From Elsinoe ampelina (taxonomy: Eukaryota), in the NCBI GenBank assembly GCA_010093995.1, contig ML992504.1:1454885-1491294 (forward strand): a stretch of 36,410 nt of DNA, read 5' to 3'. This document shows positions 6,768 through 9,713 of the stretch, piece by piece. The notes under the pieces were generated by a model, which was given only the letters and a program-made list of their open reading frames with translations, was not told the origin of the DNA and made no database searches. The translations under genes were made by a program, and so were the position numbers. The stretch's first letter is position 1, and every line of letters begins with the position of its first letter.

Positions 6768-6875
6768 CTTGTGTACCCGCCCCAGGATATTTTTGATATC
6801 CATCCAGCAAGGCTTGTCACTGCCCGAGGGCATTGCTAGCACTTGCACTACTGTACCACATCGGTCTACTTTGTG

Positions 6876-6952
6876 GTAAGTATATCAGCTGTCCCCACCC
6901 TACTCATCCCTATCCGCACCAACAAGGGGTTCAGGCCACTCACGCTGAACAG
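6876..6952 (+). other. Probable 5'-UTR intron of the C2H2 gene
   Basis: GTAAGT donor at 6876, CTCAC branch-like motif, and a CAG acceptor ending at 6952, 11 nt before ATG 6964. Confidence 0.6.
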
Positions 6953-6963
6953 GACCATCTTCA

Positions 6964-9235
6964 ATGACTTCTTACTACTCACAACATCCAATGTCTTCAG
7001 GCGAGGACTTTCCTCTCTACTCCTACTCGGACAATTACAACGCCTCCTACATGCCGACCACCTCATACGACTCTTACGCCCCTCACACTGCCGTCGACAA
7101 GTCTGGCCTCACATCACAAAGCCCGTCATACTCACCTGCCATGTCGGCGTCAAACTCGTTTGATGTGCCACCGCACTTCAATGGCACCTCAGACTCTGGC
7201 GCCTCAGGTCCAAGCACAATCTCCTCTGCGATTCCATCCCCTTCATTAAGCGGACAGAATCCTCAGGAGTGGATGCCACACCAAGGTGGTCTCAACATTG
7301 TCCATGATGACTTCCATGGAGAGTCACAATGGGCTGACACCGACGGGTACTCAGACAAGATCTCTGGCTGTGTCGGTGAGTCGACGAGTCTTTCCTCAAC
7401 CTCTTTTCCTATTACTACTTCATTTTCTTCCTTTTCTATCCCTACTGGCACATCATACCCACCGCCGCAACATCGACATGACTCTATTCAACATGAGGCG
7501 GCCTATTCGCAGCATTTCAAGTCTCCAACGACCCCAGCTTCGGCAGTCAGGTCTCCTCATCCTCCCGTCTCTCCTGCAATCGCCAGGGTGACTGGACAAA
7601 GGAGAGCTTCTGTACCCAGCTCGAGGGTCGCTGCTCATCGCATGTCATCGCCACTTGCGCATGAGCAGATGAGTCCTGAAGAGCCTAGGACGCCTCAAAT
7701 TCAAAGAGTAGCGGCCCACCAACAGGCTACGCACCAATCTCCTTTTTCTTATCATTCGAGCGGCGCTTTTGTCCCTCCTCTTGAATCTTCTTGTGTGTTT
7801 CCTTTGTACCTGCATCTCCTATCTCCTTTCTCTCTTTTCGTCATGACGATACCTGATGGACCGTGACTGACTTGTTCCAGACCCCTCTCTCATCGAGCCG
7901 TACTCGACCGCCCCTTACGCTCAAGCACCATACGCCGGCTCTGTCGGTCAGTCTCCCGCACAGATGTTTGTCAACCCGCCGTCACCTGCCATGTCGCAAC
8001 AATCCTACCACATGGCCGGCCCAATCCGGACCGACTCAAGAGCAAGTCAATGGCAGCCATACACTCGTGGCCACTCGGTCATGTCTGCACATTCGCATGT
8101 CTCTCGCCGCAGCTCTGGCTCCTGTGACAGTGACGAAAACAAAGTCATCTGCCCAATCGCATCTTGCGGCCGACCCATCCGCGACCTCAAGGCGCATATG
8201 CTCACACACCAGTCTGAGCGACCCGAGAAGTGTCCGATCCCCTCGTGCCCATACCACCTCAAGGGTTTCGCGCGCAAGTACGACAAGAACAGACACACCT
8301 TGACCCACTACAAGGGTACCATGGTGTGTGACTTCTGCCCTGGCTCTGGATCCTCCGCCGAAAAGTCCTTCAACCGCACCGATGTGTTCAAGCGTCACCT
8401 CCAGTCCGTCCACAACGTCGAGCAGACCACCCCCAACTCCCGCCGCCGCAAGCCTGCCGCCAAGAAGGGTCGCGAGATCCCTGGTACATGCCGTACCTGC
8501 GGCGTCACCTTCCCCTCCGCGCAAGACCTCCACGACCACATCGACGACTGCGTCCTGCGCGTCGTCCAACAGACCGAGCCCTCGGAAGCCATCAACGAGA
8601 AGCTCCTCACCTCCGTCGCCGACGACGAAGACGTCAAAGCCTCACTCTCCCGCCACAACCTCCCCACCTCCCTCGAAGGCCCGACCTCCTTCTCCGGCGA
8701 CGACGACGACGCCGACGACGACTCGACCCTCCGCGGCTCTGCTTCATGTTGACAATCAGCCCGCCCCTCGGACGGTGAGACGGCAACAAGGGGCGGATAC
8801 GGCAACGGCAACGGAAGCGACACGGAAGTCGCCATCAAGACGGAACCCGACGCGAAGAAGAAAGGCATGACCTGGTCCAAAGGCGGCGTCGGTCTGAGCA
8901 GCACAACGGGCAAAGGACGGAGGAAGCGCAACTACCCCCTCTCATGGGGCGCGGGTGTCGACAAGATGAAGATGAAGAAGCGCGTGCTCTGCGTGTACGA
9001 TGGCCAGAGACGCCTGTGCAAGGACGACCTCATGATGTCTGCGGACAATGAGGTAAGGATGACGCTGCCTGGCACTGAGGCGCAGGGGTGGCATCACAGG
9101 AGGTGGATCACGGACTTGGACATCTTGACACTGCGGAGAGCGGAGGCATTCCACGGCGCGACGGCGGAGGAGAGGGGACCGTGGATGGACGAGGATGGGG
9201 TGGATCTGGAGAGGTTGATGGGGGTTGCGCATTAG
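6964..9235 (+). CDS. C2H2 zinc-finger transcription factor. The main frame stops at TGA 8750-8752, with an in-frame extension to TAG 9233-9235 (candidate readthrough). Intron from donor 7376 or 7793 to acceptor 7880.
   Basis: Tandem fingers CPIASCGRPIRDLKAHMLTH, CPIPSCPYHLKGFARKYDKNRHTLTH and CDFCPGSGSSAEKSFNRTDVFKRHLQSVH, plus CRTC..HDHIDDC. Ser/Pro-rich N-terminus. CTGAC branch and CAG acceptor at 7880. ORFs 7964-8752 and 8867-9235 are in the same frame (offset 903 nt) and are separated only by one TGA. Confidence 0.85.
8750..8796 (+). promoter_or_regulatory. Candidate stop-codon readthrough element: TGA-CAATCA, 8-nt spacer, 8-bp stem-loop
   Basis: TGA CAA TCA matches stop-CAR-YYA. CCGCCCCT (8761-8768) is the exact reverse complement of AGGGGCGG (8789-8796). 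Confidence 0.6.
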
Positions 9236-9713
9236 CGGGATGGCTTGGATATGGACATTCTCTTGCACGCATGTCATGCTGCACTTTTTTTTTTTTTGAC
9301 GATCTCTTGTTACTTTGGATGCGTTCGGGCGGCATTGCGTGGTTTGGAAATGGACATTGCGAGGGAGGGGAAAAAAGCTGGGATATGATGTGGTGCTTCA
9401 CTGTCTCTACGGGAGCGTGGAATGATTGTACATGGCATTGCGACATATGAGCATGATTTGGATTGGATCAAAGGGACTATACCATTTGCTTATGGGTAGA
9501 GAATCGATTGACACTTCTCTCTTCACTGGTTCTTCTCTACTTCTGTACTTGACATGGGACCGTCCTGCGCTCGCTTCTCCTCCTTCTCCTGGGCCCTATC
9601 TCCTCGCACAATCTCTCAGCATACAAAGTGTCCCTCCTCCTACCTCTCAGCCATACCCAACCCCACGTCCTAACCTTCTTGACCACTCATCAGCCCTCCC
9701 CTTCCAGACTTCC

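Follow-up and report, generated by a model that had tools for sequence, protein, structure and literature searches.

We report that a gene for a C2H2 zinc-finger regulator in the fungus Elsinoe ampelina very probably undergoes programmed stop-codon readthrough, an interpretation that draws on the comparison of homologous sequences and on contigs derived from RNA. The gene lies on the forward strand of a 36,410-nucleotide (nt) stretch of contig ML992504.1, referred to here as the window, and its finger frame (7871-8752) ends at a TGA at 8750-8752, where the junction reads GCT TCA TGT TGA CAA TCA GCC CGC. Past this TGA the frame stays open for 160 codons (8753-9232) until a TAG at 9233-9235, exactly as an earlier examination of the letters (the sequence-only reading) had described it. 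The same reading had matched the six bases after the stop (8753-8758) to CARYYA, a motif known from leaky stop codons, and this match extends well beyond the window, as CAA-YYA follows the stop in 55 of 55 homologous loci that carry the TGA. The elements on which the argument depends are as follows.

7881..8749, plus strand: second coding exon up to the putatively leaky stop, encoding the C2H2 fingers (region of about 8141-8566) as well as an acidic linker; the short isoform that ends here has 427 amino acids.

8750..8752, plus strand: in-frame TGA, the proposed readthrough stop, unchanged in contigs of the RNA runs X3, X10, X4 and X12 and shared in position by 55 of 79 loci.

8753..8758, plus strand: CAATCA, a 3' context of the CARYYA type; CAATCA, CAATTA or CAACTA in all TGA loci.

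8761..8796, plus strand: hairpin with arms 8761-8768 and 8789-8796, 8 base pairs after an 8-nt spacer, seen in the fold, in covariation and in its excess over controls.

8753..9232, plus strand: predicted readthrough extension of 160 codons, which would give a long isoform of 588 amino acids.

8753-8863, plus strand: variable linker within the extension.

8864-9232, plus strand: conserved C-terminal domain within the extension, labelled PF28332 in relatives.

9233..9235, plus strand: TAG, the terminal stop of the putative long isoform; divergence from X12 climbs directly after it.

Conservation of the stop was assessed in metagenome contigs, which were scanned with the family alignment via two finger peptides only, so that loci were selected without regard to the stop. 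From 318 confirmed loci the best 80 were taken, of which 79 were assessable (L053 ends too early), and lineage labels were assigned from the nearest named protein. The first stop after the fingers was TGA-CAA-YYA in 55 of the 79 loci, representing 47 distinct 183-nt stretches; 23 loci had no stop and ran in frame to the terminal stop, and a single locus (L035) had a TAA that lies inside a canonical intron. The expectation of a shared in-frame stop among orthologues was thereby borne out for the 55 loci and failed for the 23. Fingers and C-terminal domain occupied one frame in 77 of the 78 loci in which local tblastn found both, and 53 of the 55 TGA loci continued in frame without any other stop, the two exceptions being L029, cut by the contig end, and L054, which carries a later frameshift. 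At L054 (1341-1750) the TGA is followed by CAATTA but the C-terminal domain stands in another frame, suggesting that the frame was shifted past the stop, whether by a contig error or in a decaying copy. Stop, context and frame are therefore conserved among these TGA loci, and the pattern of change around them is informative in itself. Among 53 loci the hexanucleotide was CAATCA in 21, CAATTA in 17 and CAACTA in 15, and since the YYA codon alternates between TCA (Ser) and TTA or CTA (Leu), it is the bases and not the residue that are kept. The codon before the TGA was found as at least 10 triplets, including CAA, CAT, AGT, AGG, GCG, AGA, AAT, GAT, AGC and TGT. Across 48 aligned sequences including the window, only the columns of T, G, A, C, A, A and the final A of YYA were invariant among 183, the context being represented by columns C64, A65, A66 and A69, and no CAAYYA was found after the terminal stops of the loci among those listed. 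A chance match of the context is ruled out because 55 of 79 homologous loci share TGA-CAA-YYA at the same place. The TGA loci are nearest to proteins of Alternaria, Pyrenophora, Neocucurbitaria, Plenodomus, Lophiotrema, Trematosphaeria, Cladosporium, Hortaea, Friedmanniomyces, Lepidopterella and Trypethelium, and the loci with no stop to those of Aureobasidium, Septoria and the Eurotiomycetes Exophiala and Cladophialophora. Judged from this distribution, the readthrough site is most likely old and widespread in Dothideomycetes, where it spans several orders.

A second conserved element follows the context. Beginning 8 nt past the stop, CCGCCCCT (8761-8768) and AGGGGCGG (8789-8796) are perfectly complementary arms that are paired in the minimum-energy fold, which agrees with the 8-bp stem that the sequence-only reading had pointed out. 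Single-sequence folds placed the start of the stem 8-9 nt past the stop in most relatives, with arm sequences that vary by lineage. Of the 48 sequences, 38 had a stem of at least five stacked pairs starting from nt 10-14, which began at nt 13 in 31 of them and at nt 12 in the other 7; such a stem followed the terminal stops of these loci in 11 of 42 cases and occurred in 169 of 960 shuffles. The mean energy was -22.9 kcal/mol versus -10.2 for the terminal stops and -14.7 for the shuffles. Covariation was scored on an unfitted MAFFT alignment with a 14-pair structure, using as controls a slid pairing partner and 500 shuffles. This revealed 74.3% paired cells against 35.9-51.3% with the slid partner, and 50 cells changed on both sides against 15-34, values that were reached in 0 of 500 shuffles; among the 10 outer pairs, 8 had undergone compensatory change. 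In this alignment the row of the window and several others lie out of register, and they were counted against the structure. A covariance model built from the alignment matched stop sites only, the training sites matching by construction, and when run on the 21 loci that lack TGA-CAA-YYA it gave no match except two weak ones on the minus strand. RNAalifold recovered just 7 pairs from the MAFFT alignment at -0.19 kcal/mol, a low yield because loop lengths differ, and no Rfam match was obtained over 8600-9000. From the comparison of relatives, we conclude that the hairpin 8-9 nt after the stop covaries and is conserved.

The frame beyond the stop encodes a domain that is characteristic of the family. 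The precomputed PF28332 label together with coverage of the extension was found in 118 of the 120 best homologues (of 1859), which confirms the statement in the sequence-only reading that homologues carry a similar C-terminal domain. The two exceptions are the closest proteins of all, P0005 from Elsinoe ampelina (100% identical) and P0006 from Elsinoe batatas (99%), both of which stop exactly at the TGA. When the extension was used alone as query it retrieved 75 short proteins, and because all of these carry PF28332, the extension is identified by homology as the conserved C-terminal PF28332 domain of this C2H2 family; relatives with the label are 50-80% identical to it. The same search with the extension alone returned no separate Elsinoe open reading frame (ORF) for it at 90% identity or above. 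An AlphaFold2 model of the domain was of modest confidence (mean predicted local distance difference test score 63.9), and this model had no match in the PDB at E <= 0.001. For the fingers, Pfam C2H2 matches (PF00096 and PF13894) at residues 206-224 in the frame from 7871 (8486-8542) scored 20.9 and 20.0 bits, the gathering cut-offs being 27 and 25.2; the family alignment has invariant Cys and His columns, and the relatives are named C2H2-type domain-containing by their sources. NCBI also holds gene models consisting of the C-terminal domain only (P0128, P0154, P0137 and P0192, from Cryoendolithus, Pseudovirgaria, Glonium and Exserohilum), as would be expected if annotation had split the gene at a leaky stop.

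Selection on this downstream frame was examined through the ratio of nonsynonymous to synonymous substitution rates (dN/dS). Downstream of the TGA the ratio was 0.054-0.344 in 12 of 12 locus pairs, and upstream it was 0.013-0.199 in the 10 pairs for which the synonymous rate could be estimated, so that, as estimated between loci, the downstream frame is under purifying selection. A comparison of the window with the protein P0002 gave no excess of lineage-specific change in the extension (8 versus 3 downstream and 9 versus 3 upstream, which are small numbers). The sequence-only reading had set out beforehand a test in three parts, asking whether the in-frame stop is conserved together with CARYYA, whether the stem covaries and whether dN/dS stays below 1 downstream, and all three parts proved positive.

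Contigs of four runs were compared with window positions 6900-9500, three of them (X3, X10 and X4) coming from three studies and the fourth (X12) from a second genotype. All four runs derive from RNA, because their contigs skip a 505-nt GT..AG intron at 7376-7880. The contigs of X3, X10 and X4 are colinear with the genome over 7880-9472, 7880-9198 and 7880-9500, respectively, with 0 other letters. Since they run colinearly across the TGA while the upstream intron is removed, the TGA is real, unspliced and unedited in the dominant form, and the mature mRNA retains the stop, in line with the earlier view that no intron takes it out. The X12 genotype differs from the window at about 1.6% and has gained 12 nt in frame at 6967; its contigs span 8594-8915, where the TGA is the same as in the window. 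The three listed differences in that interval (8671, 8740 and 8842) fall on third positions and are synonymous by codon reading, the only one listed within 8753-8915 included, and in the stretch of about 177 nt past the TAG at 9235 the listed substitutions number 15 and the indels 4. Holes in X12 at 8221-8593 and 8916-9196 place most of the C-terminal domain outside this comparison. The X3 run also contained a 210-nt contig of depth 4 that matches only 52 nt of the window (8959-9010) with 6 differences, and whose ends resemble the consensus that the family has in other Dothideomycetes; it represents either a second copy or a different fungus present in the sample.

Together with the sequence comparison, these contigs support the readthrough interpretation as a whole, which would operate as follows. 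One spliced mRNA would give rise to two proteins: most ribosomes would terminate at the UGA (8750-8752) and release the 427-residue protein with the fingers and without the C-terminal domain, and a minority would decode the UGA by a near-cognate tRNA and continue for 160 codons to yield the 588-residue protein with the PF28332 domain. The extent of the leak would be set by the UGA, the invariant CAA-YYA hexanucleotide and the hairpin 8-9 nt downstream. The short and the long form would presumably differ in function. It is conceivable, if rather doubtful, that the leak is a regulated switch and not a fixed ratio, with the hairpin or a factor binding it tuning the amount of full-length protein relative to a finger-only competitor for the same DNA sites.

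The splicing of the transcripts bears directly on the first of the other explanations that we considered, in which a minor and perhaps condition-specific splice (an exitron) would remove the block with the TGA and so give the long protein, the hairpin and a CAAYTAAC-like motif then serving splicing. Such an intron exists in one relative: at L035 (1279-1329) a canonical in-frame intron of 51 nt, a multiple of three, with GTAAGT..ACTAAC..TTTCAG, replaces the stop region at the same place. Furthermore, in 15 of 53 loci CAACTA continues with AC, giving a branch-site-like motif; gene predictors put introns at the stop region; and contigs lose rare forms. A general intron would nevertheless be expected to leave its boundaries in the alignment, and neither is conserved, there being no conserved GT before the TGA, where the codons vary, nor a conserved AG after it, where CGG, CGA and CAG alternate; the invariant bases TGACAA..A are not splice signals. 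Nor was splicing over the stop seen in the contigs of three lineages, that of the window included, which are colinear across the stop with no joint. The L061 contig is 99.8-100% identical to the genomic contigs of L060 and L064 minus two GT..AG segments (108 and 294 nt) and runs through the TGA without a break, and L072, L040 and L057 correspond to L042 and L044 minus introns with the TGA retained; because these cDNA contigs without introns retain the TGA, the spliced mRNAs of Pleosporales-like and Mytilinidiales/Hysteriales-like lineages keep the stop. As to the annotated introns, 14 annotated proteins were compared with their nearest locus at 57-94% identity, a cross-species comparison that is indicative only, and 11 of the 14 had a gap spanning the stop, two others being not comparable. 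The blocks skipped by these models are unequal, ranging from 4 to 51 residues, which speaks against one real intron and fits the earlier guess that predictors hide the stop. In a protein alignment, the Myriangiales models P0002, P0003, P0004 and P0007 likewise have no residue at the stop column. P0070 from Plenodomus biglobosus has Gly where its nearest locus, L023, has the TGA, and on the strength of the protein model alone this may be a natural stop-to-sense change. On balance, we consider it very improbable that rare splicing over the TGA accounts for the long protein.

The arrangement of the two coding parts bears on a further possibility, that the C-terminal domain has a translation start of its own, through reinitiation or internal initiation at a codon such as ATG 8867, with the TGA as an ordinary stop between cistrons. 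This ATG lies in frame where the conserved domain begins, and the domain-only gene models in the databases would suit such a product, yet the frame shared by fingers and domain in nearly all loci would not be needed, and 23 loci fuse both parts without a stop. Between TGA and NYP motif, a Met in this frame occurs in 5 of 45 loci only, most relatives having Leu at the position of the Met in the window, and to our knowledge reinitiation after an ORF of 427 codons is not expected in eukaryotes. The proposal of a start at ATG 8867 therefore fits poorly with the kept frame, and separate initiation appears slightly more improbable again than rare splicing.

The base at 8752 is decisive for a third explanation, adenosine-to-inosine editing of UGA to UGG at some life stage, similar to the restorative editing of Sordariomycetes, with which the present gene has in common that a conserved gene is cut by an in-frame stop and the full-length protein is needed. 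Fungal editing is described as repairing premature stops of conserved genes during sexual development (PMC11156358; PMC10776026), and the RNA runs compared here may lack sexual stages; within the contigs of the four runs there was no A>G or other letter at 8752. The A of the UGA follows a G and sits 8 nt 5' of the stem, unlike the edited sites of Sordariomycetes, for which U at -1 and a hairpin loop are preferred. Stop correction is described through UAG, and the species listed with editing are only Sordariomycetes and one Pezizomycete, with none in Aspergillus nidulans and Botrytis cinerea (PMC11156358). Editing would also leave the invariant CAA-YYA unexplained, and its probability is accordingly smaller still. 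As for recoding of the UGA as selenocysteine, fungi are described as being without the required machinery (PMC4207609).

A lineage-specific nonsense allele, pseudogene or assembly error, with the downstream frame as a decaying remnant, has in its favor that both annotated models of the lineage (P0005 and P0006) end at the stop and that the linker is poorly conserved, and is practically negligible given that the stop is present in three RNA studies, in the second genotype and, at the same residue, in a second species (P0006), that distant loci share it with the same context, that downstream dN/dS is 0.05-0.34 and that the extension shows no excess of lineage-specific change. A young nonsense allele of this lineage had been our first reading and was rejected when the metagenome loci were found to share the stop; the RNA contigs and dN/dS also refute it.

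Several observations count against programmed readthrough and temper our preference for it. Folded alone, the hairpin of the window has z = -0.64, with 48 of 200 shuffles at least as stable, which is ordinary for a G+C-rich stretch; because this single fold is unexceptional, the significance of the window hairpin comes only from the comparison with relatives. The 3' arm in the window lies 6 columns off the consensus register, and the covariance-model alignment also left it out of register, and the covariation controls correct only partly for shared ancestry. The loci with no stop suggest that an arrangement with two isoforms is dispensable in some lineages. The intron of L035 occupies the very place of the stop, and CAACTAAC is branch-site-like, so that rare splicing may occur in some lineages; the RNA evidence consists of contigs only, from which rare variants drop out. 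The closest Elsinoe relatives are known here from protein models alone. Finally, we infer from sequence comparison both that ribosomes pass the stop and how often they do so.

For insects and mammals there is ample documentation of cellular genes with conserved readthrough that is driven by signals, and in gammaretrovirus gag-pol and alphavirus nsP4 an RNA structure starts about 8 nt 3' of the stop. These viral elements are pseudoknots or long stems in other contexts, whereas the present gene has CARYYA together with a simple hairpin that covaries. CARYYA is reported as a stimulator of readthrough, in yeast as CARNBA, with all six bases mattering and with equal effect after UGA or UAG in a reporter (PMC4132726). 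The tobamovirus type has the same layout of a stop directly followed by CAA-YYA, but it is described as UAG_CARYYA, with structure unmentioned, while the present case concerns a cellular fungal gene with UGA and an added conserved hairpin (PMC4132726). In Ustilago maydis, UGA and the two following bases set readthrough, and the peroxisomal isoforms made through UGA-CU(A) in this fungus and in animals likewise involve a cellular UGA, decisive next bases and a C-terminal extension (PMC4207609). The gene described here differs from them in having CAA-YYA, a hairpin and a conserved domain within an extension of 160 residues in place of a short targeting signal (PMC4207609). Readthrough of animal transcription factors, such as the Drosophila POU factor Drifter (PMC8417969) and the human vitamin D receptor (PMC5868278), similarly adds a C-terminal extension for which conservation is part of the evidence, in another kingdom and in unrelated gene families. 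We found no published report of readthrough in this gene family in a literature search that did not extend to subscription journals and supplements; the one preprint that seemed close concerns the stops of retrotransposon Gag-Pol (bioRxiv 10.1101/2022.12.06.519325).

The remaining features of the gene lie upstream of the second coding exon.

6877..6952, plus strand: 5' leader intron of 76 nt, GT..AG, ending 11 nt before ATG 6964.

6964..7375, plus strand: first coding exon from ATG 6964, encoding the N-terminal region; the ORF fits the N-terminus of P0005 and P0006, and the exon end is taken from the RNA joint.

7376..7880, plus strand: main intron of 505 nt, GTGAGT..AG, with the RNA joint 7374>7880 (cut +1) in 4 of 4 runs.

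The leader intron is absent from the X3, X10 and X4 contigs, in which the letters before 6952 are those of window 6846-6875, its boundaries being taken from the sequence, and a loose end in X12 agrees with its removal. The main intron also has a minor splice form, in which 7376-7794 is retained as an in-frame coding block of 140 residues and 7795-7880 alone is removed. This form is represented by an X10 contig (7383-7792) at a depth of 25.6 versus 167.8 for the main form, and the block is retained as well in P0005 and in the models of E. fawcettii, E. australis and Myriangium. The same two splice forms were observed in a distant lineage, in L057 versus L072 and L040.

The readthrough signal seems to be evolving in several ways, with loss in some lineages, the Gly of P0070 and the intron of L035. 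In the last of these, GATAACTAACA resembles the TGACAACTAACA context, a hint of a readthrough context turned branch site, and CAA-CTAAC seems to have been co-opted there to provide a new in-frame intron with its branch site; if so, L035 would represent a rare link between recoding and intron gain. For the databases, the consequence is that annotation models truncate the protein at the stop or insert introns of varying size, and thereby misrepresent the family. The fungal cases of readthrough that we found in the literature concern short peroxisomal targeting extensions and retrotransposons, and in the present gene an entire conserved transcription-factor domain lies behind a UGA, with a virus-like CARYYA and a covarying hairpin, in several orders of the Dothideomycetes, a class with many crop pathogens and extremophiles. 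The gene thus offers a clean natural system for how context and structure jointly set readthrough in fungi, and the same comparative test is applicable genome-wide for further genes of this kind. Should the leak prove to be regulated, it would constitute a translational control point over one regulon in Dothideomycetes.

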